A DNA stretch of 43,501 nt. Source: a virus (lineage: Duplodnaviria > Heunggongvirae > Uroviricota > Caudoviricetes). The stretch is taken from the IMG/VR virus record IMGVR_UViG_2547132420_000011, one strand, 5' to 3'. How positions within the stretch are numbered: the first letter of the stretch is position 1; every line of letters begins with the position of its first letter. The notes beneath the pieces are model-generated. The model was not told the origin of the DNA and did not search any database. It saw only the letters and a program-made list of their open reading frames with translations. A program made the translations under genes and the position numbers. Shown here piece by piece: positions 24,556 to 40,431 of this stretch.

Positions 24556-25350
24556 ATGAGCGAGAAATTAAAGATAGTCTATCGCCCATTACAAGAATTG
24601 TCACCGTATGCGCACAACGCCAGGACGCACAGCCCTGAGCAGGTGGCACAACTGGTAGAAAGTATTAAGCAATTCGGCTGGACTAATCCGGTGCTGATTG
24701 ACGAAAAGGGCGAAATTATTGCGGGTCACGGTCGTGTTATGGCGGCTGAAATGCTCAAAATGGATTCTGTTCCGGTCATTGTTCTGTCTGGCCTGACGGA
24801 TGAGCAGAAAAAGGCGTACCGCCTGGCAGATAATCGCCTGCCGATGAATGCTGGCTGGGATGAAGATCTGTTGCGGATGGAGCTGTCGGACCTAATCAAT
24901 GCTGATTTTGATGTCTCCCTGACAGGCTTCATCCCGACAGAAATTGATGAACTGTTGACGGATGTTTTGCCCGGTACAGGAAATGAGGAGGAGCCGTATA
25001 CGACGAAAATTGATACGCCTGTTTATGAGCCGTCGGGCGGTAAACCGGATATCAGTGAACTGTACGACGATACGAAAACTCAGGAGCTGATCAGCCGGAT
25101 ACGTTCGGCGTCCCTTGATCCTGATATTGAGAAATTCCTCCTGTGTGCGGCAGAACGTCACACAGTGTTTAATTTCAGCAGAATTGCGGACTATTACGCT
25201 CATGCCCCCGCTGAAATTCAGTGCCTTTTCGAGGAGTCGGCGCTGGTGATCATTGATTATCAGCAGGCTATTGAAAATGGATTTGTCCGAATGACGCAGC
25301 GCATGGTGGAGATCATGCATGGCGGGGAGGAGGAGGAGGAATATGCGTGA
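24556..25350 (+). CDS. ParB-like nuclease domain protein (full-length YnaK-like)
   Basis: 264 aa; N-terminal ParB/Srx-like region (VYRPLQELSPYAHNARTHSPEQV ... GHGRVMAA); C-terminus ends GGEEEEEYA encoded by a GGAGGAGGAGGAGGA repeat. Confidence 0.8.
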   Translation: MSEKLKIVYRPLQELSPYAHNARTHSPEQVAQLVESIKQFGWTNPVLIDEKGEIIAGHGRVMAAEMLKMDSVPVIVLSGLTDEQKKAYRLADNRLPMNAGWDEDLLRMELSDLINADFDVSLTGFIPTEIDELLTDVLPGTGNEEEPYTTKIDTPVYEPSGGKPDISELYDDTKTQELISRIRSASLDPDIEKFLLCAAERHTVFNFSRIADYYAHAPAEIQCLFEESALVIIDYQQAIENGFVRMTQRMVEIMHGGEEEEEYA

Positions 25351-26275
25351 TGATTTTTGCGCCTTTATTCTGACTCACGGGCGACCGGACAAAGTTCTGA
25401 CTTACCGGACGTTGCGTCGTGCTGGCTATACCGGGAAAATTTTTATCGTTGTTGATGATGAAGATAAGACACGGCATCAGTACATGGCTGAATTTGGTGA
25501 ACAGGTGCTGGTATTTTCCAAAGCCGATATTGCCAGTCGTTTTGACGAAGCCGATAATTTTGGTGATCGCCGCTCAATTTTTTACGCCCGTAATGCCTGT
25601 TTCGACCTGGCAAAACTGGTCGGGTGTAAATACTTCATTCAGCTCGATGATGATTATCACGAGTTCCAGTTTCGGGTGGATCGCAACTATGACCAGGCCT
25701 ATTTCCCGATAAGGAAACTGGATGCGATCCTTTCTGAAATGCTGGCGTATTACGAATCAATACCCGCGCTTTCCATCGCTATGTCGCAGGGCGGGGATTT
25801 TCTTGGTGACAATGGCGGCCATGCTTCGTGGGTGAAACGCAAGGCAATGAACAGCTTTATCTGTTCGGTTGATCGACCGTTCTCATTCATGGGGCGCATT
25901 AACGAGGATGTGAATACGTACACGAATCTCGGTCGCTGTGGTGAATTGTTTATGACGATCGGTGCTGTCCAGTTAGGGCAGAAACAGACGCAGAAAAACA
26001 GCGGCGGAATGACCGAGCTGTATCTGGATTCCGGAACCTACGTTAAAAGTTTTTACTCCGTCATGTATTCGCCGTCGTGCGTAAAAATCTCACTGATGGG
26101 TGCCAGCCATAAACGCATTCACCATCAGGTCACCTGGAACAACGCTGCAGTAAAAATCCTTCACGAAAAATACAGGAAGAAGACACCCTGCATATCAATG
26201 GGGGTGACAAATGATTCCGTATTCGAAAGTCGAGTCTCTGGCAGCGTGCCGGATGACTGCACAACAAATCGCTGA
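25343..26275 (+). CDS. Hypothetical protein; possible nucleotide-sugar transferase-like fold (DxD-type acidic motifs), unassigned
   Basis: ORF 25319..26275; ATG at 25343 lies directly after the GGAGGA repeat; motifs FIVVDDEDKT and FIQLDDDYHEF; overlaps the ParB-like stop by 8 nt. Confidence 0.55.
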   Translation: MRDDFCAFILTHGRPDKVLTYRTLRRAGYTGKIFIVVDDEDKTRHQYMAEFGEQVLVFSKADIASRFDEADNFGDRRSIFYARNACFDLAKLVGCKYFIQLDDDYHEFQFRVDRNYDQAYFPIRKLDAILSEMLAYYESIPALSIAMSQGGDFLGDNGGHASWVKRKAMNSFICSVDRPFSFMGRINEDVNTYTNLGRCGELFMTIGAVQLGQKQTQKNSGGMTELYLDSGTYVKSFYSVMYSPSCVKISLMGASHKRIHHQVTWNNAAVKILHEKYRKKTPCISMGVTNDSVFESRVSGSVPDDCTTNR

Positions 26276-26462
26276 CGTTCTGGATGTTGATCTGAACCGA
26301 CTGAAAGAAAATCGGGAAGCAATGACAGATTTTTATGCGGCCATCCGTAAGGGCAGAGCGAAAGGTGAAGCCGAGTTACGAGCGGCATTGTTTAAGCTTG
26401 CCAGAAAAGGGGATGCCTTTGCTCTGCGCGAACTACTCAGGGTGGATAAAAATCAGGACTAA
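26211..26462 (+). CDS. Small HTH-like protein upstream of terminase
   Basis: 83 aa; ATG at 26211 preceded by GGGGGTGA but overlaps the upstream gene by 65 nt (internal ATG at 26253 would overlap 23 nt); stop 4 nt before terS. Confidence 0.4.
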   Translation: MIPYSKVESLAACRMTAQQIADVLDVDLNRLKENREAMTDFYAAIRKGRAKGEAELRAALFKLARKGDAFALRELLRVDKNQD

Positions 26463-26465
26463 CTG

Positions 26466-27560
26466 ATGAGCAGACCGGACTGGGGGGCGTTGCAGCAGGA
26501 GTATATTGCTGAATACACCCGCTCCGGTATATCTCCGGTGGCATGGTGTGAAGCAAGGGGACTGAACTACGCAACAGCCCGTCGTTACATCAAAAAAACT
26601 CCGAAAAATGCGCAGAAAGAAATGCGCAAAACTGCGCAAAAAAGTGCGCGAAAAAAAACTGCGCAGACTGCGCAAAGGCAGAACAGAAAATCTCAGAAAA
26701 AAAAGGCTGTATCCGATGCACTCCTGATTGAGGGGGACACGGAAGAAATTTCGTTCTGCCCCGATGAATTCGGTATTTCTGACCAGCAGGCAAAATTCGC
26801 CATGTTGGTTGCTCAGGGGAAAAAGCCGACAGAGGCATACCGACTGGCTGGTTATGAGGGGCAAGGTGCGACAGCTAACAGCAACGCCAGCCGTATGCTT
26901 AGAAATGCCAGGGTTTATCGTGCTATCAGCTACTTCCGCAATCAGTACCAGAAACGCTATACCGCAGACCTGGATTTACTGGTGAGCCAGTTGATGGCCA
27001 TTGTCCAGGCCGACCCCAATCAGTTGGCACAATTTCGCCGTGTTAACTGCCGTTATTGCTGGGGCGAGAATCATCTCTACCAGTGGCGTGATATTGCAGA
27101 ATTCGATAAGGCTGCGGCACAGGCCTCCAGAGATGGTAAACCCGAGCCGGAATATGGAGGCCTCGGCTTTGTTGATAACGCCATACCCAATCCTGATTGC
27201 CCGAAGTGCTGCGGTGAGGGAACAGGACAGCTTTATATGGCTGATACCACACTGCTTGATGGGGATGCGCGGCAATTATATGCAGGGTCAAAGCTCGGAA
27301 AATACGGTGTTGAGATCCTGCTGGAGGATAAGGCTGCCGCCCGGCGTGAATTGTTGCGTTTGCTTTCTGCTGGCGGGGCATTATGTGCAGATAAGCGGCT
27401 ACAGGAACTGGAAATTGAACGGCGCAGAATAGAGAACCAGAAGCTGCGCAAAGAGATCGAAACGGTGGAGGATAATGAACATCCCCAGCCTGTGGCGATC
27501 AATATTAATGTGGTTGATGCCAGATTAAGGAGTGATGAAGATGATCTCTCCGACGCTTAA
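26466..27560 (+). CDS. Terminase small subunit with extended Cys-rich C-terminal region
   Basis: 364 aa; N-terminal HTH, Lys-rich repeat, then motif GATANSNASRMLRNARVYRAI typical of small terminases (from memory); C-terminal Cys clusters CRYCWGENH and CPKCCGEG. Confidence 0.7.
   Translation: MSRPDWGALQQEYIAEYTRSGISPVAWCEARGLNYATARRYIKKTPKNAQKEMRKTAQKSARKKTAQTAQRQNRKSQKKKAVSDALLIEGDTEEISFCPDEFGISDQQAKFAMLVAQGKKPTEAYRLAGYEGQGATANSNASRMLRNARVYRAISYFRNQYQKRYTADLDLLVSQLMAIVQADPNQLAQFRRVNCRYCWGENHLYQWRDIAEFDKAAAQASRDGKPEPEYGGLGFVDNAIPNPDCPKCCGEGTGQLYMADTTLLDGDARQLYAGSKLGKYGVEILLEDKAAARRELLRLLSAGGALCADKRLQELEIERRRIENQKLRKEIETVEDNEHPQPVAININVVDARLRSDEDDLSDA
26609..26674. repeat. Six TGCGC(A/G) hexamer repeats in A-rich context inside terS (candidate pac/TerS-binding site)
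   Basis: TGCGCA at 26609, 26623, 26633, 26660, 26669 and TGCGCG at 26645, located by codon position; encodes KNAQKEMRKTAQKSARKKTAQTAQ. Confidence 0.45.
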
Positions 27561-28842
27561 TGTGCCTCAGGCGCGATTTCTTTCAATGCCCCATAAATTT
27601 AAAGCCTATATTGCTGGTTTTGGCTCGGGCAAAACATGGGTTGGGTGTGGCGGCATATGCAAGGGGATTTGGGAGCATCCAGGTATAAATCAGGGATATT
27701 TTGCGCCAACGTATCCCCAAATTCGCGATATTTTTTACCCTACAGTGGAAGAAGTTGCTGCTGACTGGGGATTGAACGTAAAAATTAATGAGGGAAATAA
27801 AGAGGTTCACTTTTATTACGGACGCCAGTATCGGGGAACCACTATCTGCAGATCGATGGAGAAGCCACAAACGATCGTCGGTTTCAAAATTGGTAATGCG
27901 CTGGTGGATGAACTGGACATTTTGCCGAAGGAAAAAGCCAGAACGGCGTGGCGCAAGATAATTGCGCGTATGCGTTATAAGATTGATGGACTTCGCAACG
28001 GTATTGACGTTACAACCACGCCGGAAGGATTCAAATTTGTCTACGAGCAGTTTGTTAAAGCCGTGCGTGAAAAAACAGATCTGGCCTCACTGTATGGTCT
28101 GGTGCAGGCATCTACTTTCGATAATGAAAAGAACCTGCCAGCAGATTACATTCCTTCACTTCTTGAATCATACCCTCCAGAGCTGATTAAAGCCTATCTT
28201 CTAGGACGGTTTACTAACCTGACAAGTGGTACTGTTTACCATCAGTTTGACCGGAAACTGAATAATTGCGAAGAAGTGGAGCAGCCAGGGGAGCCGATTT
28301 ATATTGGGATGGATTTTAACGTTGGAAAGATGGCGGGAATCGTCCATGTGCTGCGTTTGGGGCTTCCATGTGCGGTAACTGAAATCATCAATGCCTACGA
28401 TACGCCGGATATGATCCGCCTCATTAAAGAACGCTTCTGGCTGTATGACGGGCATGATTACCGGAAAGTGAGGGAGATTTATATTTATCCAGATGCTTCC
28501 GGAGATTCCAGAAAATCAAGTAACGCAAGTACGACGGATATAGCCCAGCTTAAGCAGGCAGGTTTTAACGTTGTGGTGAACAGCTCGACCCCGCCAGTAA
28601 AAGATCGCGTTAACTCAATGAATGCAATGTTCTGCAATGCCAATGGTGAGCGTCGCTATAAAGTTAATGTGAAGCGTTGTCCGGTATATGCCGAATCTCT
28701 GGAGCAACAGGTCTGGGATGATAAGGGGGAGCCTGATAAAAAATCTGGCAATGATCACCCGAATGATGCCGGAGGTTATTTCATCGTTAAGCAATTCCCT
28801 ATTGTCAAACCGACCGGAAGAGTCACATCACTTCGGATTTAA
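27535..28842 (+). CDS. Terminase large subunit
   Basis: ORF 27532..28842; ATG at 27535 preceded by AGGAG; Walker A-like AGFGSGKTW; C-terminal nuclease-like acidic residues; overlaps terS 3' end. Confidence 0.9.
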   Translation: MKMISPTLNVPQARFLSMPHKFKAYIAGFGSGKTWVGCGGICKGIWEHPGINQGYFAPTYPQIRDIFYPTVEEVAADWGLNVKINEGNKEVHFYYGRQYRGTTICRSMEKPQTIVGFKIGNALVDELDILPKEKARTAWRKIIARMRYKIDGLRNGIDVTTTPEGFKFVYEQFVKAVREKTDLASLYGLVQASTFDNEKNLPADYIPSLLESYPPELIKAYLLGRFTNLTSGTVYHQFDRKLNNCEEVEQPGEPIYIGMDFNVGKMAGIVHVLRLGLPCAVTEIINAYDTPDMIRLIKERFWLYDGHDYRKVREIYIYPDASGDSRKSSNASTTDIAQLKQAGFNVVVNSSTPPVKDRVNSMNAMFCNANGERRYKVNVKRCPVYAESLEQQVWDDKGEPDKKSGNDHPNDAGGYFIVKQFPIVKPTGRVTSLRI

Positions 28843-28844
28843 TT

Positions 28845-30251
28845 ATGGCTGATATATCAACACCCAACCTCGACTATAACGATATGCTGGAGGCGTGGGA
28901 TATTAACGACGCATTGATGGGCGGTACGCTTGAAATGCGCAGGCAGGGGGAAAATTATCTCCCCAAATGGCCTAATGAAGATGAAGACGCTTATAAAAAA
29001 CGCCTGTCTGTGGCTACGTTACTTCCTGTGTATGAAGAAAGCATCAAACAAAATATTGGGCGCATATTTGCAGAGCCGACAGTATTGAGTGAGGAAACGC
29101 CGGAAAAAATCAGGGAATATGCAGAAAATATCGACATGGAGGGGAGCCGACTGGATGTGTGGGCGCAGCAATTTTTCAGTCTCGCATTTCAGTATGGTGT
29201 GGCACATGCGCTGGTGGACTATCCACGAACGGATATGAACGAGATTCGGACAAAAGCCGATGAAAACGCGGCCGGTGGTCGCCCGTACGTTACGATGCTG
29301 AATCCACGCCAGGTTATTGGATGGAAATCGAAAGTTGAAAAAGGGAAAGTTGTTCTCACTGATTTGCGTATAAAAGAGGTCATCATTATTGATGGTGATG
29401 ATTTCGGGCAGAAGAAGGTGGAGCAGATCCGCCATATTATGCCCCGTCGAGTAGAAATTTATCGACGCAGCGAAGGTACTAATGGCGAATCTGTCTGGAT
29501 GCTTCATGAGTCATGGAATACCAGCCGTGATGATATTCCTCTGGTAACACTGTATACGAAGAAAACAGGGTTTATGCGTGGTACACCGCCATTGCTTAAT
29601 CTTGGCTTGCTGAATATCAAGCACTGGCAAAGCCAGAGCGAGCAGGACAATATTCTTCATGTTGCCCGCGTTCCATTGCTGGTGGCCTACGGGCTGGACA
29701 GGAATGAAGAACTGACGGTTGGTGCATCCACGGCTACGATTTTTGAGGACAGAACAAAAAATGGCCTCGAATATGTTGAACATAGTGGCGCAGCGATAGA
29801 ATCTGGCGAAACATCACTTGAGAAGCTGGAAAATCAGATGCGTCATGCCGGCGCTAAACTTCTGCGGGCTGAAAATACATCCACCAAATCTGTTGATCAG
29901 ACTAATGAAGAGCGGATGCAGGAACACTCGCCGCTTTATACAATGGCGAACTCCCTCGAAGATGCCCTCGATAATATTCTCCAGATAATGGCGGAATGGA
30001 GCGGAGAGAGTTGCGGTGGCAATGTGGATGTGCGCACTGAACTGGATGTATCTGCCCAGGTGTTTGACTCATCCTCCGCGCTGGCTGTTCAGTCATTGCG
30101 TCAGGGCGGTGATATACGTCAGATTGATGCGGTTCGGGTGTTGCAGGCGTTGAAATTTATCGATCAGGATTCCCGTCCAGAGGATGTGATCGATGAATTA
30201 AAAAATCAGAGTGTAATGTTGATGGAAATCAATGATGCAAACCGTGAATGA
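28845..30251 (+). CDS. Portal protein
   Basis: 468 aa immediately downstream of terminase large subunit; size and position typical of portal. Confidence 0.75.
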   Translation: MADISTPNLDYNDMLEAWDINDALMGGTLEMRRQGENYLPKWPNEDEDAYKKRLSVATLLPVYEESIKQNIGRIFAEPTVLSEETPEKIREYAENIDMEGSRLDVWAQQFFSLAFQYGVAHALVDYPRTDMNEIRTKADENAAGGRPYVTMLNPRQVIGWKSKVEKGKVVLTDLRIKEVIIIDGDDFGQKKVEQIRHIMPRRVEIYRRSEGTNGESVWMLHESWNTSRDDIPLVTLYTKKTGFMRGTPPLLNLGLLNIKHWQSQSEQDNILHVARVPLLVAYGLDRNEELTVGASTATIFEDRTKNGLEYVEHSGAAIESGETSLEKLENQMRHAGAKLLRAENTSTKSVDQTNEERMQEHSPLYTMANSLEDALDNILQIMAEWSGESCGGNVDVRTELDVSAQVFDSSSALAVQSLRQGGDIRQIDAVRVLQALKFIDQDSRPEDVIDELKNQSVMLMEINDANRE

Positions 30252-31347
30252 ACGGCTGCGTGATGAATCAATTGCTCATGCAGTCTGGATATCCCGCTAT
30301 AGCACTGGTGTGGCTGCCAGAATGGTGAAAATACTGAATGACAGCGATGCGGAGCTTACAGCTCGCCTGCTGGTAGCACTGGACAGCCTCGATCCTGGTA
30401 GTTTTACCGTTACGCGCCTGGAGTCACTTCTGGCGAGTGTCAGAGAGGTTAACCGCGCTGCTATTAACAGCATGTTTACCAGTCTCTCCGGAGAGCTGAA
30501 CGAGCTGGCAATTTATGAGGCTGGTTATCAGTTAAGTCTGTTTGATTCTCTGCTACCTGATTTTGTTGCTGATGTTCACCCTCTGGTTGGTATATCTTCT
30601 GATGCACTTTACGCCGCTGCAATGGCGCGACCATTCCAGGGACGACTGCTCAGTGAGTGGGCCTTGGATCTTGAGGCGGATCGGCTCAGACGCATAACAA
30701 ATACGGTGCGTCAGGGTTTTTTGCTGGGGGATACCAATGAGCAGATCGCAAGAAAAATTCGGGGACATGTCAGCAAGGGATTTCAGGATGGTGCATTGCA
30801 GATGAGCCGGGCTAATGCGGCCAGCATTGCAAAAACAGCGGTTGGACATCTTGCTGCTACTGCCCGTGAGAGTTTTGCCAGCGCGAATAATGATTTGATT
30901 AAGGGTAAGCAATGGTTATCAACGCTTGATAATCGTACTACGCCACAATGTCGAATCAGGGATCGCCTCAAATATACGCTGGATAATAAACCTGTAGGTC
31001 ACAGTGTGCCTTATTTGCATGGGCCGGGAAAAATTCATTTCTGCTGCCGCTCAACGGAAACGTTCATTCTGAAATCAGCGAAGGAACTGGGTATTGATGT
31101 TCGTGATATTTCCCCGGCTGAGCGGGCCAGCATGGATGGCGTGGTGGCCGGAGATACAACCTACAGGGAATGGTTTTTGCGTCAGCCTTACACCAGACAA
31201 AAACAGATTGTGGGGGAAACCCGGGCAAAGCTGATTCGGGATGGCGGTATGTCGCCAGATGAATTTTACACCGATAAAGGCGAATGGCTGACGCTGAAGC
31301 AACTCCGTGAGCGTGATGCACAGGTATTCAGAAAAGCAGGGATTTAA
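30232..31347 (+). CDS. Head morphogenesis protein (Mu F / SPP1 gp7-like minor head protein)
   Basis: 371 aa, overlaps portal 3' end; gene order portal then F-like morphogenesis protein. Confidence 0.7.
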   Translation: MMQTVNERLRDESIAHAVWISRYSTGVAARMVKILNDSDAELTARLLVALDSLDPGSFTVTRLESLLASVREVNRAAINSMFTSLSGELNELAIYEAGYQLSLFDSLLPDFVADVHPLVGISSDALYAAAMARPFQGRLLSEWALDLEADRLRRITNTVRQGFLLGDTNEQIARKIRGHVSKGFQDGALQMSRANAASIAKTAVGHLAATARESFASANNDLIKGKQWLSTLDNRTTPQCRIRDRLKYTLDNKPVGHSVPYLHGPGKIHFCCRSTETFILKSAKELGIDVRDISPAERASMDGVVAGDTTYREWFLRQPYTRQKQIVGETRAKLIRDGGMSPDEFYTDKGEWLTLKQLRERDAQVFRKAGI

Positions 31348-31367
31348 ATAAATCATTTATTACAACA

Positions 31368-31391
31368 GGCTACCTTCGGGTGGCCTTTTTT
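31368..31391 (+). terminator. Rho-independent terminator with UUCG tetraloop
   Basis: Stem GGCTACC (31368-31374), loop TTCG, stem GGTGGCC (31379-31385, one G-U pair), T6 (31386-31391). Confidence 0.6.
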
Positions 31392-31451
31392 ATTGCTGCG
31401 ATCCGGATGGTGAGCAGCGTAACTGTCGGAAGACTTAAACCAGGTACTAAT

Positions 31452-32216
31452 ATGAAACTGAAAACGGTCGAGATTAACGGAAAACAATACGCAGAAATTG
31501 ATACTGCTGGCCTGCCAGTTTATGTGCACGACGATGGTAAAGAAATCGGCTTCGATGCACCGCTGGCGATAAAAAAAATTACAGAGCTTAATGGCGAGGC
31601 AAAAAATCATCGCCTGGCTAAAGAAGCTGCAGAGGAAAAACTGGCTAAGTTTGCCGCTATCGAAGACCCGAAGAAGGCGATCGAGGCACTGGAAATGCTG
31701 TTAAAAATCGACCAGAAAAAGCTGATCGATGCGGGACAGGTTGACCAGGTTAAGGCAGAAATTACGAAAAATTTTCAGCAGCAATTAGATGAAGAAAAGC
31801 AACGCTCTCAGATGCTGGAGACGCAGCTTTACGATTCTATGATTGGCGGTAGTTTTGCGGGTTCAAAATATATTGCCGATAAAATTGCGATCCCGGCAGA
31901 TTTATTACAAGCCCGCTTCGGGCAGGCATTCAAAGTGGAAGAAGGGAAGATCGTTGCTTATGACGCTTCCGGCAACAAAATTTATTCCCGCGCGAAGCCT
32001 GGCGAACTGGCGCAGTTTGATGAGGCGCTGGAGTTCCTTGTCGAAAATTACCCTCAGAAAGACTACATCCTGAAAGCCAGTGGCAACAATGGCGGCGGCT
32101 CCCGTCCGACACAGCATGATATTGGTCAGAAAACGATGAAACGCTCTGCTTTTGATGCACTGGATGTTGCAGGTAAGCAAAACGCATTGAAAGACGGTAT
32201 CACAATCGTTGATTAA
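31452..32216 (+). CDS. Putative scaffolding protein
   Basis: ORF 31380..32216; ATG at 31452 (MKLKTVEINGKQY...) chosen because upstream part overlaps the terminator; charged coiled-coil-rich sequence; immediately precedes major capsid gene. Confidence 0.55.
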   Translation: MKLKTVEINGKQYAEIDTAGLPVYVHDDGKEIGFDAPLAIKKITELNGEAKNHRLAKEAAEEKLAKFAAIEDPKKAIEALEMLLKIDQKKLIDAGQVDQVKAEITKNFQQQLDEEKQRSQMLETQLYDSMIGGSFAGSKYIADKIAIPADLLQARFGQAFKVEEGKIVAYDASGNKIYSRAKPGELAQFDEALEFLVENYPQKDYILKASGNNGGGSRPTQHDIGQKTMKRSAFDALDVAGKQNALKDGITIVD

Positions 32217-32314
32217 CACATTTGTCAGCTTCCGGATGGGAGCTGGTGTCAGGGCTGGATAGCTCATTACTCCATCTATTCACAATTACGCAAATTTTTA
32301 AGGAATATTTAATT

Positions 32315-33454
32315 ATGGCTGGAAATACCCTGACCGGGTTGATCCCGACTATTTATACCGCCCTGGATGTTGTATCCCGTGAGCAGGTAGGTTTTATCCC
32401 TGCGGTAGCAAAAAACGTAAAAGCTGACGCCGCAGCAAAAGATCAGACGGTAACCGCGCCAGTTGCGCCTGAGGCGAAAACCGAAGATATCGTACCGGGG
32501 CCGTCAGCTCCGAATACCGGTGATCAAAATATTGGCACTGTTGATGTAAAAATTACTAAATCCAAAATGGCACCGGTTAAATGGAATGGTGAAGAACAAC
32601 TGGCTCTTGGCCCTTCAGGGACTTACAACACCATTCTGGCTGATCAGTTCAAGCAGGCTTTTCGCGCCCTTGCAAACGAGGTTGAGGCTGATCTTGGTGC
32701 GTTGTATTTCGGTGCTTCCCGCGCCGTGGGAACCGCAGGGACAACGCCGTTTGGTGTTAAAGATGATCTTTCTGATGCTGCTCTGGCTCGTCAGGTTCTG
32801 GAGGATAACGGCGCACCGACAACCGATCTGCAGATGGTGCTTGGCTCCACTGCCATTGCTAATTTGCGCGGAAAACAGTCTGTATTGTTTAAAGTGAATG
32901 AATCCGGCACTGAACAGCTACTGCGTGAGGGCGTGTTGGGGCGTCTGGAGGGATTCAATATTCACAGTTCGGCAGGTGTGAAACGAGCGCCAAAGGTTGC
33001 TGCAACTGGTTATCTCGTGAATGGAGAGAAAAAAGAAGGCGATGTTCTTATTTCCATTGATACTGGTTCGGGGAGTATTTCTGCAGGTCAGATTGTTACG
33101 TTCGCTGGTGATCCGAATCAGTATGTTGTGGCAGCAGCGACCAGCAATCTGATTACTCTTGCAGCGCCCGGACTGCGTCAGGATCTGGCCGATGATACTG
33201 CCATCACAGTTGTTGGGGCCTTTACGGCAAATATGGCGTTTGATCGCAACGCGTTTCTGCTGGCATCCCGTACTCCGGCAATGCCGGAAGGTGGCGATAA
33301 TGCTGATGATGTAATGAATGTTACGGACCCGATTTCAGGGATTACGTTCCAGATTGCACTGTATCGTCAGTATCGCCAGGTGCGCTATGAAGTTGGACTG
33401 GCATGGGGTGTTTCATCAGTGAAGCCGGCACATGGTTGTCTGATTCTTGGTTAA
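32315..33454 (+). CDS. Major capsid protein
   Basis: ORF 32222..33454; ATG at 32315 preceded by AAGGA; 379 aa; follows scaffold-like gene; flanked by strong terminators. Confidence 0.7.
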   Translation: MAGNTLTGLIPTIYTALDVVSREQVGFIPAVAKNVKADAAAKDQTVTAPVAPEAKTEDIVPGPSAPNTGDQNIGTVDVKITKSKMAPVKWNGEEQLALGPSGTYNTILADQFKQAFRALANEVEADLGALYFGASRAVGTAGTTPFGVKDDLSDAALARQVLEDNGAPTTDLQMVLGSTAIANLRGKQSVLFKVNESGTEQLLREGVLGRLEGFNIHSSAGVKRAPKVAATGYLVNGEKKEGDVLISIDTGSGSISAGQIVTFAGDPNQYVVAAATSNLITLAAPGLRQDLADDTAITVVGAFTANMAFDRNAFLLASRTPAMPEGGDNADDVMNVTDPISGITFQIALYRQYRQVRYEVGLAWGVSSVKPAHGCLILG

Positions 33455-33464
33455 ACATTCAAAC

Positions 33465-33484
33465 GGGGCTTCGGCCCCATTTTT
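33465..33484 (+). terminator. Rho-independent terminator with UUCG tetraloop after capsid gene
   Basis: Stem GGGGC (33465-33469), loop TTCG, stem GCCCC (33474-33478), then ATTTTT. Confidence 0.6.
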
Positions 33485-33496
33485 AATGGGGGGCAT

Positions 33497-33673
33497 ATGG
33501 CCGGATTAACTAAAGAGCAAAGAGCACAGCGTGAAGCCGCACAAAAAACGCAAATTGAGTTAGTGGTTATGGTGACCGATTATCAGATGTTTCCCGGCGC
33601 ACCAACTATCGCTAATGTTCATCCTGATGAAGTTGACAACTGGAAGGCTATGGGCTGGAAAACTCAGGAGTAA
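33497..33673 (+). CDS. Small head-region protein, 58 aa (below the ORF-track length cutoff)
   Basis: ATG at 33497 preceded by GGGGGG; translation MAGLTKEQRAQREAAQKTQIELVVMVTDYQMFPGAPTIANVHPDEVDNWKAMGWKTQE; stop TAA 33671-33673, 3 nt before the next gene. Confidence 0.4.
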   Translation: MAGLTKEQRAQREAAQKTQIELVVMVTDYQMFPGAPTIANVHPDEVDNWKAMGWKTQE

Positions 33674-33676
33674 CAC

Positions 33677-34072
33677 ATGATCACTTACGTGACCTGTGAT
33701 GACGTTGATAATGCGTTTGGGAACGCCTGGACGAGTGAGAACGCTAAAAATAAAGCTGTTTTAATGGCTAATGCCTGGCTTAATGGCTTCAACCTGAAAA
33801 TTAACCCATCCCGTATTCCGGAAGAGGTAAAACTTGCGGGAGCATATGCAGCCAGAATTGCCTCATTCGGTAAGTTGTTTCAGCAGAAAAATGATTCTGG
33901 CGTTGTTATCAGTAAAGCCGTGTCGGCTGACGGGGTCAGTGTATCGAAATCATTTTCTGAGTTGCCAGCAAACAGCACTGCATTGCTTGAACCCGATTTA
34001 CAGCTTGCGATAGCACTGCTGAAACCGTACGGACTTAGTCGCTCACAAGTCAGGGTTGTGAGGGGGGGATAA
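33677..34072 (+). CDS. Putative head-tail connector / head completion protein
   Basis: 131 aa; AGGAG upstream; called by position in head-to-tail gene order. Confidence 0.5.
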   Translation: MITYVTCDDVDNAFGNAWTSENAKNKAVLMANAWLNGFNLKINPSRIPEEVKLAGAYAARIASFGKLFQQKNDSGVVISKAVSADGVSVSKSFSELPANSTALLEPDLQLAIALLKPYGLSRSQVRVVRGG

Positions 34073-34455
34073 TGGGGCTTCGTGAAGAGATTCAGTCAGA
34101 GGTTGCCGCTGCTTTTGATGAGGATTTAGCGGACGCCGTGAGTGATTTTTCTGGTTCTTACGTTACGCACCGGCACTGGGATCCTGTGACGGAAACTGGC
34201 GGCGAATCCACCGCAATCTATACCGGGCGAGGCGTGTTGACACGTTATAAGCTGGGCAGAATTGATGGGATTAATATTTTGCATGGTGACCTTAAATTAA
34301 CCGCTCTGGTATGCGAGGTTACGGATAAACCAGCTGTCGACCATATTATTGAGATTTATGATCCTGTATCAAGGCAGTTACAACGATACGAGGTAATTAC
34401 AGCAAGTGTAGATCCTTCCGCATCAGTTTACTCTATCCAGTTAAGGAGAGCGTAA
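34072..34455 (+). CDS. Putative head-tail adaptor / head closure protein
   Basis: 127 aa; translationally coupled (TAATG); called by position. Confidence 0.5.
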   Translation: MGLREEIQSEVAAAFDEDLADAVSDFSGSYVTHRHWDPVTETGGESTAIYTGRGVLTRYKLGRIDGINILHGDLKLTALVCEVTDKPAVDHIIEIYDPVSRQLQRYEVITASVDPSASVYSIQLRRA

Positions 34456-34836
34456 ATGGCAAAGGCATGGGATATAGAACCGTCAATATTTGCCGGGATG
34501 ATTGAGGAAGATGTAGGGCTGAAGATTCGCTACATCGCTATTCAGATTCTTACTGCTATTGATATTGCTGCTCCGGTTGATACCGGACGTTTCAGAAATA
34601 ACAACCTGGTGTCGTTACAGCATCCCGATTTTGGTATATCTGATAACGTGGATCCGAACGGTACGATTGCTGTTCAGCGTGGGATCGGGGTTATTTCGAA
34701 AGCTGCAAATTACGGAGTTATTTATATCCAGAATAACCTTCCTTATGCAGAGGCTCTTGAAAACGGTCATTCACAACAAGCGCCAACTGGCGTGTATGCC
34801 AACGCTTTTCATGGTGTTTTACAGGCTTACAAATGA
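34456..34836 (+). CDS. HK97 gp10-like tail-completion family protein
   Basis: 126 aa; C-terminal motif NNLPYAEALENGHSQQAP resembles HK97 gp10 family (from memory). Confidence 0.6.
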   Translation: MAKAWDIEPSIFAGMIEEDVGLKIRYIAIQILTAIDIAAPVDTGRFRNNNLVSLQHPDFGISDNVDPNGTIAVQRGIGVISKAANYGVIYIQNNLPYAEALENGHSQQAPTGVYANAFHGVLQAYK

Positions 34837-35225
34837 CGTTTACTGAAATCAGAAATACGGTTATTTCCAGAATGACGGCACAGACGATTATTGATGGAAA
34901 AGACGTATTGTATCCGAACGCGCCAACGTTCGATCCTTCCGGTAAGTTAATCTGGGCGCGGTTAAGTAATATTCCCGGGCAGGCTGGAGTTAATGAAATT
35001 GGCGCGGGGCCGATTGTTTATCGCACGGGGATAATCATTATTCAGTTATTTGTCCCCGCAGGTTCTGGTTCAAAACTCATTACTGAGACAGCCGATAAAT
35101 TGCGGGAACTGTTTGAGTTTCAGGATGACGATCGTCTCAGTTACCAGGCTGTTTCCTCAATAGCCGTTGGCGAAAAGAATGGCTGGTTCCAGCTTAATCT
35201 TCAAATTCCATATCGCGCGCTCTAG
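34833..35225 (+). CDS. Putative tail terminator / tail completion protein
   Basis: 130 aa; ATGA overlap with upstream gene; called by position before major tail protein. Confidence 0.5.
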   Translation: MTFTEIRNTVISRMTAQTIIDGKDVLYPNAPTFDPSGKLIWARLSNIPGQAGVNEIGAGPIVYRTGIIIIQLFVPAGSGSKLITETADKLRELFEFQDDDRLSYQAVSSIAVGEKNGWFQLNLQIPYRAL

Positions 35226-35251
35226 CGCAATTAATGACATAGGAGGCTCCT

Positions 35252-36214
35252 GTGAGTTCAGGTGCAAAGGTTATCTCGGCATTTATCCGGGAGACGGTTG
35301 CAGGCACTACGCCAGCAAGTGGTGACTGGAGTTTATTAAAACGCACAAGCTGGGGAGTAAAACCCACCCAGAATAAAGGCGAAAATAATGAGATTGGTGG
35401 CTCCCGGATGGCTCAGGGGGCGACGCCTGGCACTGTGGATGTCGGCGGTGATGTTGGTACCAAATTTCGCTGGGGTCAACATGATGATTTTCTTGCATCC
35501 TGTTTCGGCGCGGAATGGTCAGGCGATTCTCTGACAATGGGGAATGAGCGAATAACATTTTCTCTGGCGACCTATGCGTCCGATGTCGGAATTGCCTCTG
35601 TCGTCAGAGGAGCGCAGGTTGGCTCATGGAAAATGCAGATCCCTAACGACGGCGATATTACAGCGACCGTAACCTTTGCCGGACTGGACTGGGAATCAAA
35701 GGCCGATGATACGAATTTTATCAAAGGCGAACCTGTGGATAGTGCAGGAAAGCTACGTTATTCGTTTAAGGAGGTTTCAGCAGTAAGCCTGAATGGTGTT
35801 GCCGGAGGTAACGGTTTTTGTATCGACAGTTTTGATATTCAGTTCGATAACAAACTCCAGACACAGCGTTGTATCGGGACTGGCTCGCCTTATGCAGGAG
35901 CAAATATTCCGACTACTTTTACACCGTCCGGTACGGTGACGCTTTCATGGTCTAAAGCCGCGTGGGAAATCTGGAGTAAAACACTGACTGGAGAAACAGT
36001 TCCGTTCAGCTTCACGCTTTCGAATGGAGAGGGGGCATACACTTTCAGTTTCCCGAAGGTTCAGGTGTCAGGTGAATGGCCTGATGGGGGTAATAGCGAC
36101 ATTATCCAGGTTCAATTGAGCATTACCGCAGCAGATGAAGCACCTACGATAACCAGAAAAAAAAATTCCCCGGCTGCCGTGATCGCAAAAGCCAGTGCTG
36201 AGGCGATTAGTTGA
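35252..36214 (+). CDS. Major tail (tube) protein
   Basis: 320 aa; GTG start preceded by AGGAGG (35241-35246); immediately upstream of tail assembly chaperone and tape measure. Confidence 0.7.
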   Translation: MSSGAKVISAFIRETVAGTTPASGDWSLLKRTSWGVKPTQNKGENNEIGGSRMAQGATPGTVDVGGDVGTKFRWGQHDDFLASCFGAEWSGDSLTMGNERITFSLATYASDVGIASVVRGAQVGSWKMQIPNDGDITATVTFAGLDWESKADDTNFIKGEPVDSAGKLRYSFKEVSAVSLNGVAGGNGFCIDSFDIQFDNKLQTQRCIGTGSPYAGANIPTTFTPSGTVTLSWSKAAWEIWSKTLTGETVPFSFTLSNGEGAYTFSFPKVQVSGEWPDGGNSDIIQVQLSITAADEAPTITRKKNSPAAVIAKASAEAIS

Positions 36215-36262
36215 TTTTCCGTTATTCCTCCTGTGGTACTGCCCTACAGGGGGACGCATTGA

Positions 36263-36724
36263 ATGAGGTTATGGATGTTTATTCTTAATCAGAAAATTAT
36301 CATTGGTGTAGAACGCTGGTTTACGCCAATGAAGGACTTAAAACCTGTAGACGGGTTAAAACTGTTGGTGGCAAGCAGCGATAACGATCAGTATCGCTCC
36401 CGTAATGCATTAATCCGTCGCCACATTGAGAAAATGGATGCCAGTTTGCACGTCGGAACGAAGGAGTTTGATATTTCAAAGGTTTCCGAGGTGGATTCTG
36501 TTGATGATTTACTCATTGATAATGCCGCTCGTTATCTGCTGAAAGACTGGAAAGGGGTTGGTGAACTGGTTAATGGTGTTGAGGTTGCACTGGAATATAC
36601 GGCAGAACGAGGGATCGCGCTGCTTAAGCAGAATCCAGAGTTGTACTGGCAGATCCTTGCAGAAGCAGCCAGCATCGCCCAGGGTAAAGAGCAGCAGAAG
36701 CAGGATACGATAAAAAAGCCATAG
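36263..36724 (+). CDS. Tail assembly chaperone (lambda G-like)
   Basis: 153 aa; ATG preceded by GGGGG; acidic protein upstream of tape measure; contains slippery site near its 3' end. Confidence 0.7.
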   Translation: MRLWMFILNQKIIIGVERWFTPMKDLKPVDGLKLLVASSDNDQYRSRNALIRRHIEKMDASLHVGTKEFDISKVSEVDSVDDLLIDNAARYLLKDWKGVGELVNGVEVALEYTAERGIALLKQNPELYWQILAEAASIAQGKEQQKQDTIKKP

Positions 36725-37032
36725 CTGCCCAGCGGTGGTTATCGGAGTTCGGGGGAGAAAGGGGGGAAAAGGCAAGATGGAAGCGAGAAAAACTCAGGTT
36801 GCCACCGATACCGGAACCAGAAATAGACCCGGTGCTTAAGGAGTTGTTGTACGCCTATTCGGTAATATCCCGTGCCCGACGTTATGCTGGAATGGCTGGG
36901 GGGCCTTTGCCTTTATCTCTGACAGAGATAAATGAATATTTAACCACTCATCCGGTATTGATTGAGCGCGATGAATTTGAAGCAGTGATCTTTGCACTGG
37001 ATGACCAGTATTTTCAGGAGCAGTGTGTGTAG
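36263..37032 (+). CDS. Tail assembly chaperone frameshift fusion (lambda GT-like), produced by -1 slip at 36712-36718
   Basis: -1 frame continues ...AIAAQRWLSEFGGERGEKARWKREKLRLPPIPEPE... to stop TAG 37030-37032; standard G/GT arrangement upstream of tape measure. Confidence 0.55.
36712..36718 (+). other. Programmed -1 ribosomal frameshift site A_AAA_AAG (G to GT)
   Basis: Heptamer A AAA AAG in the zero frame of G, 4 nt before the G stop (TAG 36722-36724); the -1 frame is open from 36688 to 37032. Confidence 0.6.
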
Positions 37033-37152
37033 TTGTTAATTACGTACACTCTGTTACAGAGATGTGATGGTGTCTTTAATTAAATCGATGATGCTCCTGG
37101 AGAAAAGCATTGCGTGGCCTCGTAATCGCTATATCTACTATTATGTCGCCTG

Positions 37153-37177
37153 AAACCCACTTCGCGGTGGGTTTTTT
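37153..37177 (+). terminator. Intrinsic terminator-like hairpin between GT and tape measure gene
   Basis: Stem AAACCCAC (37153-37160), loop TTCGCG, stem GTGGGTTT, T-run to 37177. Confidence 0.5.
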
Positions 37178-37197
37178 GTTGTCAGGAGTTTTAATAA

Positions 37198-40100
37198 ATG
37201 GCAGAGCAAACCTCGCGTCTCGCAATAATTATTGATAGCACTGGAGCGAAAAATAATGCTGACAATCTGACCTCCTCATTAGTCAAAATGACGCAGGCTG
37301 GGGAAACTGCTGCAAATAGCGCAGGGAAAGTGACTAAGGCAACAGAAGATGAGAAGAACGCGCTCGCAAAATTAAAAGCAGCTATTGATCCAGTTGGTGC
37401 CGCAATTGATACTGTCGGTCGACGCTATTCTGAATTAAAGAAATTTTTCGATAAAGGGCTTATTGATAAAGAAGAATATGAATTTCTTGTCCGTAAACTT
37501 AATGAAACCACAGAGGAATTGAGCGGGGTTGCGCAAGCGCAGAGAGAAGCCGAGAAGGCCGGAAAACTTGCTGCCGCCCAGCAGGAAGCGCAGGCTCAGG
37601 CCTTTCAAAGAATGCTGGACAAGATCGACCCTCTGGCTGCGGCGCTAAGAAATCTTGAACAACAGCATGATGAACTTAATGCTGCGTTTGCATCCGGGAA
37701 AATAAATGGTTCTCAGTTTGAGAATTATAGCCGAAAAATACAGGAAACACGGCGAGAGCTTACCGGAGAGGCTCAGGCAGAGCGAGAAGCAGCAAAAGCG
37801 CATGATGAACAGGTTGTTGCTTTGCAACGTCTGATTGCTCAACTTGATCCTGTCGGAACTGCTTTTAATCGTCTGGTAGAACAACAGAAACAGCTCAATG
37901 AAGCAAAAGCTAAGGGGATGCTTTCTCCTGAAATGTATGAGGAGCTTTCTGGAAAACTTCGTGCTATGCGGAGTGAGCTTGAGGTTACTCAATCACAATT
38001 AAGCAAAACCGGAATGTCGGCAAAACAAACGGCTTTTGCTATGCGCATGTTGCCTGCACAAATGACGGATATTGTTGTTGGGTTGTCCACTGGTCAGTCG
38101 CCATTTATGGTGTTAATGCAGCAGGGCGGCCAGCTAAAAGATATGTTCGGTGGGATTGGCCCGGCGATCAAAGGGGTAGGTTCTTATGTGCTGGGATTAA
38201 TTAATCCTTTTACCCTGGCCGCAGCAGCCGTTGGGGTCTTAGGACTGGCTTACTATAAAGGCTCTCAGGAGCAGGACGAATTTAATAAATCTCTTATTCT
38301 TACCGGAAATCAGTTGGGGACAACCAGCGGGCAATTGGGCGATTTAGCTCAACGTGCCGGGAATGCGGCTGATTCGACAACTGGTGCTGCGGCGGCAGTA
38401 TTAAATCAGCTTGTGCGTTCGGGAAAGGTAGCGAGCAGTTCGCTGGAGCAAGTGACGACAGCGATAGTAAAAACGAGCGAAGTAACAGGAATATCAACCG
38501 AACAACTGGTTAATGACTTCAATGAAATTGCAAAGGATCCTGTCAGTGCCATATCAAAACTTAATGATCAGTACCATTTTCTGACACTTGCGACTTATAA
38601 CCAGATTAAGGCGCTACAGGATGAAGGGAACCAGCAGGAGGCCGCCCGCATTGCGACAGAAGAATACTCATCCTCAATGATCCAGCGCACCAACCAGATT
38701 AAAGAAAATCTTGGTTATCTTGAGACTGCATGGAAAGCTGTCGCAGACTCCGCAAAATGGGCATGGGATTCCATGCTGGATATTGGCCGTGAGGCCTCCC
38801 TTGATCAAAAAATCTCAGATGTTCTCCGTCAAATTGATGAAATAGAAAAAAATACCCGATCCGGAGTTTTCGGGTTAGGTGGCATTGGAGATGGCGGAGC
38901 TCAAAATAAAAGGCTGGCACGATTAAAGCAGCAATTGGGCGTACTTCAAGCAGAAAAAATTGCTCAGGACGTACTAAATTCATCAATAAACGATTACAAC
39001 AAGCGACAACAGGAAGGAATTGAACTCAGACAGAGAGCAGATGCCTTTTCAAAACAATATCAGACCCGGGAGCAGCAGAGAGCTAGTGAACTTGCAAAAC
39101 TGGAAAAGCTAAAGAATCAGTATTCAAAGGAAGAATATAATAATCTTATCGCTCAAATAAATGAGCGTTATAAAGATCCAAAGCAACCAAAGGCGAAAGA
39201 TTATTCTGATGATGCAGCCCAACGAATGATTGATCATCTGAATCAACAGAATGCGTTACTAAGTTCACAAGCTGAGTTGACCGTTAAATTAAGTTCCTCT
39301 GAACAGGAACTGGTTAAGTGGCGTCAGCGGATTGCCGACCTAGAGTCACGACCATCATCGAAATTAACCCAGGATCAGAAATCGCTTCTCTTACACCGGG
39401 AAGAAATAACCACGTTGATGGAGAAAAATGTTGCGATTGAAAAAAATAACAGGCTAATCAAGGAATCCGCCGAAATAACAGCATGGCGTGATTCATTGCA
39501 GGCTTCGATTGATAATCGTCAGCAGGGGTATGATATTCAGATTGCTGGTTATGGGGTTGGCGATAAAAATCAGCAACGCCAGCAGGAATTACTGCGGATT
39601 GAACATGGATATAACAATCAGCGTCTGCAACTTGAACGTGACTATGCAGATAAATCCCGTGGAATGTCAGATCATGTTTTTCAAGAGAAAATGCAGGCTC
39701 TGAATGATGCTCTGGAACGGGAAAAAGAAATTGTCAGACAGAAAAACGAGCAGCTCGATATTCAGGCAGGAGACTGGGTTAGTGGTGCCTCCCAGGGATT
39801 CAATAACTGGCTGGATGACACTAAGGATATCAGTGAGCAGATAAAATCAACCACGACTCAGATGTTTGATGGGATGACCGATGCGCTGGGTGATTTTGTC
39901 ACGACAGGCAAGGCAAATTTTCGTTCTTTCGCTACTTCCGTGATTTCGGATCTTAGTCGAATAGCATTAAAGGCTTCAATTACTGGGATTTTCGACAGCA
40001 TTAGTAACAGTTCTTCTGGGGGGATTTTAGGAACTATCGGGAGTGCTATTAGTAAATTTATTCCGAATGCAAAGGGCGGTGTTTATGAGTCTCCGTCATT

Positions 40101-40431
40101 GAGCACGTATTCGAACGGTATTTATGATTCCCCGCAATTTTTTGCTTTTGCAAAAGGGGCTGGTGTTTTTGGTGAGGCTGGACCGGAAGCCATTATGCCA
40201 TTAACACGAACTTCCGATGGTTCTCTTGGTGTCAGAGCTATTAATAGTAAAAGTGGTAATGGAGGCGGAGATATTACCTATGCCCCTGTATACCAAATCA
40301 CTATTCAAAATGACGGCCAGAATGGAGAGATTGGCCCTCAGGCAATAAAAGCACTTATGGGGATGGTTGATCAGCGGGTGCAGGGCAATCTGTTAAATAT
40401 GCGACGTGATGGGGGAATGTTAAGTGGCTAA
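37198..40431 (+). CDS. H: Tail tape measure protein (lambda H-like)
   Basis: 1077 aa; long coiled-coil/Ala-Gln-rich N-terminal part, hydrophobic Gly-rich segment, C-terminal region resembling lambda gpH; AGGAG upstream. Confidence 0.9.

Follow-up and report, generated by a model that had tools for sequence, protein, structure and literature searches.

A highly probable −1 ribosomal frameshift between the putative tail chaperone genes G and T of a Rac-like E. coli prophage

The GT fusion protein of a Rac-like E. coli prophage is very probably made by a −1 ribosomal slip at positions 36712-36718 of the window (that is, the whole 43,501-nucleotide stretch of Caudoviricetes DNA analysed here, IMG/VR virus record IMGVR_UViG_2547132420_000011), a reading drawn from comparison of sequences, in which we infer both the ribosomal nature of the shift and the chaperone roles of the two gene products, G and T. 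The G/GT frameshift is a well-known phage device, and it is this instance of it that is unannotated in the records inspected. According to the proposed mechanism, one mRNA would give rise to two forms of a tail assembly chaperone, G and GT. Most ribosomes would translate G (36275..36724) and stop at its TAG. With AAA in the P site and AAG in the A site, both Lys-tRNAs on a small fraction of ribosomes would slip back one base and re-pair with AAA_AAA, and reading would go on in the −1 frame to 37032, yielding a GT of ~29 kDa. By analogy with lambda, the tape measure protein would be coated by G and by the G part of GT, the T domain would recruit the tail tube protein, and neither form would be found in the virion. 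In the lambda model, G forms a coat on the tape measure protein and GT brings in the tube protein through its T domain, at a G:GT ratio of ~30:1 (PMC5009743).

The genes concerned, their neighbours in the tail module and the elements of the slip site are the following, with the evidence in brackets.

34833..35225, tail terminator-like protein gene (ORF/profile survey)
35252..36214, + strand, tail tube (major tail) protein gene, immediately upstream of G (Pfam Phage_tube_2, E=9e-32)
36275..36724, + strand, G-like putative tail assembly chaperone gene, with a zero-frame product of 149 aa and 16.9 kDa (PHROG_313, E=1e-45)
36712..36718, + strand, slippery heptamer A_AAA_AAG, predicted −1 programmed ribosomal frameshift site (phase, and invariant A_AAG core in relatives)
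36718..37032, + strand, T segment, in the −1 frame after the slip, 104 codons plus TAG at 37030-37032 (PHROG_1189, E=2e-35)
36722..36724, + strand, zero-frame TAG ending G, one codon past the heptamer (sequence reading)
37198..40431, + strand, tape measure protein gene, immediately downstream of T, 1077 aa (Pfam TMP_2 1.6e-81, Tape_meas_lam_C, PHROG_24)

Lying between the tail tube and tape measure genes, G and T occupy the position expected of a G/GT chaperone pair, in a lambda-like tail module that continues past the tape measure gene with M-, L-, K- and I-like genes. Upstream of the tail module are genes for both terminase subunits (small and large), a portal protein and the major head protein, and the window also holds a ParB-like gene and a RecE-type exonuclease gene. 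From this combination – a lambda-like tail, terminase, portal and head genes, ParB-like protein and RecE-type exonuclease – it follows that the window is a Rac-like lambdoid prophage. A terminator-like hairpin, through which antiterminated transcription from the late promoter presumably reads, lies midway in the tail operon (37152-37185, + strand: GAAACCCAC TTCG CGGTGGGTTTT, 10 pairs, then a T-run), after the T stop at 37032 and ahead of the tape measure start at 37198.

The slip site itself is readily described. The G-like ORF (36263..36724) ends in ...CAG GAT ACG ATA AAA AAG CCA TAG, and the AAAAAAG at 36712-36718 (+ strand) begins on the last base of the zero-frame codon ATA. The zero-frame reading, AT[A AAA AAG] CCA TAG, is in the X_XXY_YYZ phase required for a tandem −1 slip of the P- and A-site tRNAs. 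An earlier note on this DNA had already placed an A AAA AAG in the zero frame of the G-like gene, and it does lie there in the correct phase. The distance of 4 nt that the note gave between heptamer and stop holds if one counts from the final base of the heptamer to the first of the stop (TAG, 36722-36724) but not as the number of intervening nucleotides, of which there are three, a single CCA codon. The −1 frame, which the note had described as open from the heptamer to 37032, proved on translation of both frames to be stop-free already from 36688, up to the TAG at 37030-37032. Because it is open only from 36688 and G stops at 36724, the two frames can be joined only within 37 nt. This overlap offers only 10 positions to an in-phase heptamer, and the composition-based probability of finding AAAAAAG at one of them is ~9e-4, as against ~1e-2 when any of 15 efficient E. 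coli heptamers is allowed, and ~4e-2 for any XXXYYYZ. Over the whole window the motif shows no enrichment (14 copies vs 12.8 +/- 3.9 expected), and it is conservation across relatives that rules out chance as an explanation of the heptamer. A second in-phase A_AAA_AAG (26697-26705, + strand), within a run of eight A in the ORF 26466..27560 encoding the small terminase subunit (TerS), opens on a −1 frame that ends after 8 codons; a shift there would truncate TerS at about residue 80, and this copy looks incidental to a Lys-rich stretch.

The comparison of relatives rests on 94 related loci that were gathered by tblastn and profile-derived patterns from E. coli, Salmonella, Klebsiella, Citrobacter, Erwinia, Mixta, Pseudomonas, Acinetobacter and their phages. 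These loci amount to 42 unique sequence contexts around the junction, and their identity to the window goes from near 100% down to ~30%. In 93 of the 94, the part homologous to T lies in the −1 frame with respect to G, and in all 94 the T alignment (tblastn) starts exactly at an in-phase A_AAG, the Lys of the junction being an invariant column of the GT alignment. Three classes of motif are found at this point: (i) A_AAA_AAG in 82 loci, from Enterobacteriaceae, (ii) G_GGA_AAG in 7, from Acinetobacter and Mixta, and (iii) a bare A_AAG in 5. The Pseudomonas loci (L007, L008, L014, L015) have G_GAA_AAG, with the tetramer only and a G ORF that runs on for 60-75 nt, and in Erwinia phage Gungnir39 (L006, 1089-1095) GCA_AAG is followed directly by TAA, a 'shifty stop' layout; these loci, which have no full heptamer, may rely on a single-tRNA slip. 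The zero-frame stop is found anywhere from 0 to 105 nt downstream of the slip site across relatives. Since the distance to the stop varies while the motif stays, it is the motif, not the stop, that is the conserved element. On the evidence of these alignments, a fixed protein junction, a kept slip motif and a wandering stop are together the signature of a selected recoding site.

The same series of loci bears on whether it is the ribosome or RNA polymerase that slips. The window has six consecutive A at 36712-36717, and RNA polymerase adding one A in this A6 run would produce an mRNA encoding the identical fusion, with no ribosomal slip. However, the same junction is found with only three A (G_GGA_AAG in Acinetobacter and Mixta, GCA_AAG in Erwinia) or four (GAA_AAG in Pseudomonas), and runs of three or four A are poor substrates for polymerase slippage, the productive form of which needs runs of ~8-9 or more in bacteria. 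The fact that relatives with three or four A keep the junction makes transcriptional slippage unlikely as a shared mechanism, and we regard it as extremely improbable here. What the relatives have as a common denominator is the tRNA-Lys A-site slip motif.

The one locus in which T is not in the −1 frame, IMG/VR UViG_2513237361_000013 (L019), has lost 1 nt from a G6 run of the T frame (equivalent to window ~36761-36766); it was considered as a true same-frame G-T locus and rejected, its apparent frame resulting from this deletion. Such a lesion in a related contig, and the presence of the segment in the clearly defective Rac remnant of K-12 (whose head genes are deleted and whose tape measure gene is truncated), are what might be expected if the window were a defective prophage in which a non-functional two-frame layout is kept only by descent. 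Decay of this sort, however, would not be expected to preserve the layout across genera, where whole-fusion protein identity is 27-66% (36-79% for the G part), under purifying selection in both frames, and the terminase, portal, capsid and tail genes of the window look like a complete module. There is hardly any likelihood that the arrangement is a relic.

The stretch that follows the motif carries a coding signal. This was assessed by a codon test on 29 unique enterobacterial sequences, over the 75 nt (25 codons) past the slip site. Third codon positions of the −1 frame hold 34 of the 57 minimum substitutions, the synonymous share of differing codons is 66% in this frame vs 13% and 11% in the other two, and stops within the 75 nt are absent from the −1 frame in all 29 sequences but present in the zero frame in 27. 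This codon signature indicates that the 75-nt segment is under protein-coding selection in the −1 frame only. The −1 frame of these 75 nt contains no start codon in the 29 sequences, which, combined with the coding constraint, implies that the segment is reachable only from the G frame. In the window, the first ATG, GTG or TTG in the −1 frame is at 36799, with none earlier, and the six-frame ORF list gives only the TTG-initiated 36799..37032; as the earlier note had remarked, the fusion is missing from it.

Short T ORFs of this kind are indeed called by gene callers. Besides the six-frame ORF from TTG 36799, there is a 66-aa hypothetical protein in ETEC H10407 that starts from the GTG equivalent to 36832, and a 61-aa ORF in phage SPF_0923 from the TTG equivalent to 36847, with GGAG before the TTG. 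Taken at face value, these calls would mean that the heptamer is incidental and that T is a free protein of 61-77 aa, made from an internal start (TTG 36799, GTG 36832 or TTG 36847), with no fusion. We consider this very unlikely, because the protein sequence encoded by the 25 codons from the slip site up to the first possible start is conserved across genera, with a −1-frame codon signature, A_AAG is kept in all lineages exactly where T homology begins, and the PHROG_313 profile covers G plus T as a single protein. T would instead be read as the C-terminal domain of a GT fusion.

The products that would result can be described in some detail. An alternative upstream start for G, ATG 36263, would give a protein of 153 aa, whereas the ATG at 36275 has a GAGG (36265-36268) ahead of it, at a spacing of 6 nt, and the equivalent Met is the start in Klebsiella and Erwinia homologues and in most database proteins. 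The placement of this GAGG and the agreement with homologues from other genera make ATG 36275 the likely true start. Depending on the start, the conceptual GT fusion has 252 or 256 aa (28.8 or 29.4 kDa), with a predicted junction at ...QDTIKK followed by AIAAQRW... and a junction peptide predicted as ...DTIKKAIAAQRW... or ...QDTIKKAIAAQRWLSE. Against PHROG_313 ('tail assembly chaperone'), the conceptual GT aligns with positions 13-246 of the 258 in the profile (8.5e-50), at 170.7 bits vs 157.2 bits for G alone, and this end-to-end match, which scores above that of G alone, implies that the profile was built partly from G-T fusion proteins. The search for chaperone family profiles also gave a match to PHROG_8233 (2.5e-8), and T scored 21 bits against Pfam Phage_TAC_18, below the gathering threshold of 27. 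G matched no family in Pfam-A and NCBIfam, in a search that used a copy of Pfam-A without PF27119; all G homologues in the protein database carry PF27119 as a precomputed Pfam family. As for structure, a sequence-profile search of solved structures returned no relative of G. The AlphaFold model of G is of low confidence (pLDDT 57), and with this model the fold search of the PDB gave no match, while Foldseek against BFVD gave mostly tail or tape-measure chaperones, as weak matches (E ~1e-3, TM 0.4-0.5). Pell et al. 2013 are said to have described a spiral-forming fold of tail chaperones. The G-GT tail chaperone pair that the earlier note had recognised is supported by gene identity, position, frame relation and conservation of the slip site, which together point to the same assignment.

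How often the shift would occur can be gauged from published reporters. In E. coli, A_AAA_AAG promotes 0.29% frameshifting with no stimulator, 4.3% with IS911 stimulators and 39% with the IS3 pseudoknot (PMC4066793 Table S3), and the corresponding values for G_GGA_AAG, the lambda heptamer, are 0.28%, 3.8% and 43% (PMC4066793). A_AAG is the most efficient −1 tetramer and X_XXA_AAG are the most efficient heptamers in this species, in whose genes A_AAA_AAG in this phase is strongly avoided (z = −10.1) (PMC4066793). No conserved downstream RNA structure was detected at our site, the consensus fold of 14 sequences having −3 kcal/mol and no covariation or compensatory pairs. A hairpin directly past the heptamer (36719-36745) was tried as a stimulator and rejected, the 82-nt fold being no better than shuffles (z = +1.05), and the only match in an Rfam scan of 36000-37400 was an sroH fragment at chance level, lying on the terminator-like hairpin. 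Upstream, there is one candidate element.

36702..36705, + strand, AGGA, candidate Shine-Dalgarno-like stimulator (role speculative), 6 nt upstream of the heptamer (present in enterobacterial relatives)

Sharma et al. looked for elements of this type at a distance of 6-17 nt ahead of the motifs (PMC4066793). AGGA occurs (as CAGGA) in the enterobacterial relatives with A_AAA_AAG and is absent in Erwinia, Mixta, Pseudomonas and Acinetobacter; since it overlaps Gln-Asp/Glu codons, its conservation is inseparable from coding constraint. Given no conserved downstream stimulatory structure, and a heptamer that on its own reaches only the basal level in reporters, the efficiency of frameshifting could be low, and we infer that it is probably a few per cent or less.

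The gene in question is not a rarity, since the G of the window is the full-length form of E. coli YdaY. At a coverage of at least 80%, the 770-bp G-T segment is present in 1,063 of 5,426 complete E. coli genomes (roughly a fifth), mostly in copies at least 99% identical, and it is also found in ten phage records. RefSeq starts ydaY (L002, L003, L004) at a TTG within the gene (window 36365) and so gives it only 119 aa, also in intact E. coli prophages, and this call appears to be inherited from the truncated Rac remnant of K-12; T is either unannotated or a short hypothetical protein. The five E. coli, Salmonella and Klebsiella records that were inspected (two intact E. coli prophages, a K-12-type Rac remnant, and phages SPF_0923 and ST846-OXA48phi9.2) call the gene YdaY or hypothetical, and the feature names listed for other E. 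coli matches agree with this naming. A GT fusion is annotated in none of eight feature tables (E. coli, Salmonella, Klebsiella, Erwinia, Pseudomonas and the TCUAN1/MD-2021a Acinetobacter-phage), and among 5.8 billion clustered proteins the search found proteins of G length, under the names 'hypothetical' or 'YdaY', and only a few fusions, generated by indels. Two single-ORF fusions in the database, P0001 and P0002, were examined as annotated slippage products and rejected as indel variants or assembly errors, P0001 (E. coli, 240 aa) being an in-frame G-T fusion through an upstream deletion; both of them, like the L019 deletion, are either natural mutants or homopolymer assembly errors. A literature search for ydaY with frameshift or Rac found, in the collection of papers searched, none linking ydaY to frameshifting.

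The K-12-type Rac remnant retains the heptamer and the full 104-codon T frame. In NZ_CP026028 (K-12-type, L004, 2249-4258), the ParB-like fragment ynaK abuts ydaY at query position 111, from which it can be deduced, by comparison with window ~24556-37198, that ~11.5 kb have been deleted (terminase, portal, head and other tail genes). A tape measure fragment survives in this remnant, beside the slip site and the T frame, and some E. coli encode a ParB-YdaY fusion ORF (P0038).

The main value of these findings is one of annotation, in that a gene named YdaY or hypothetical would become a G/GT pair, which gives a function to a gene found in the above proportion of complete E. coli genomes; what is known of phage tail assembly or of the frameshifting mechanism is not changed. 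The comparative series, in which one junction is served by three kinds of slippery sequence, may interest recoding researchers. The chances seem evenly balanced that the YdaY family is a frameshifting chaperone in which the P-site half has been repeatedly replaced (AAA, GGA, none) around an invariant A_AAG, with some members apparently relying on the bare tetramer, or on one beside a stop, for a −1 shift that the phage needs. Should the tetramer-only members in Erwinia and Pseudomonas produce enough GT, they would offer a natural test of the minimal phage frameshift signal.

Several known systems resemble this one. The sites in E. coli dnaX and in the IS3 family (IS911, IS2, IS150) have an identical A_AAA_AAG and the same tRNA-Lys mechanism, but their stimulators are defined, a Shine-Dalgarno sequence upstream and a hairpin or pseudoknot downstream, and their rates are high, in contrast to the window with its lack of conserved structure; their biological roles are unrelated. 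Another is ECs1801 from prophage Sp9 of E. coli O157:H7 Sakai, a tail assembly chaperone with an ...A_AAA_AAG TAG end and a longer −1 product, which Sharma et al. 2014 (PMC4066793) list, in cluster A_AAA_AAG_25, among the safely inferred −1 frameshifts. Unlike in the window, its stop directly follows the heptamer and its tail module is of a different type; it was rejected as a member of the same family as the window G, with no detectable sequence similarity (BLASTP E=1.0).

Acinetobacter phage vB_AbaS_TRS1 (TRS1_18/TRS1_19, RefSeq NC_031098) has a T domain homologous to that of the window. Its gene pair, likewise placed between the major tail gene and downstream tail genes, is curated as a two-piece joined CDS (a prediction), with a −1 junction at the same alignment position and a Lys AAG codon. 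It departs from the window in having G_GGA_AAG as heptamer and a G ORF that runs 78 nt past the site, and close relatives of TRS1 are only ~27% identical to the window fusion.

The classic counterpart is gpG/gpGT of lambda (Levin, Hendrix and Casjens 1993; Xu, Hendrix and Duda 2004, 2013, 2014, summarised in PMC5009743). The two differ in (i) the heptamer, which is G_GGA_AAG in lambda and A_AAA_AAG here, (ii) the G protein, that of the window having no detectable similarity to a Pfam lambda-G family in the Pfam copy searched, and (iii) the tail tube, which is of the Phage_tube_2 family in the window and of the V type in lambda. In their organisation, however, they are much alike. In both, the space between the major tail gene and the tape measure gene is taken up by two overlapping ORFs (PMC5009743), a −1 shift near the end of G, on a tRNA-Lys-decoded X_XXA_AAG, gives (or, in the window, would give) a minor G-T fusion (PMC5009743), and no strong conserved RNA stimulator is apparent, while the downstream genes of the window are themselves lambda-like, from the lambda-type C-terminal domain of the tape measure protein to the M/L/K/I-like genes.
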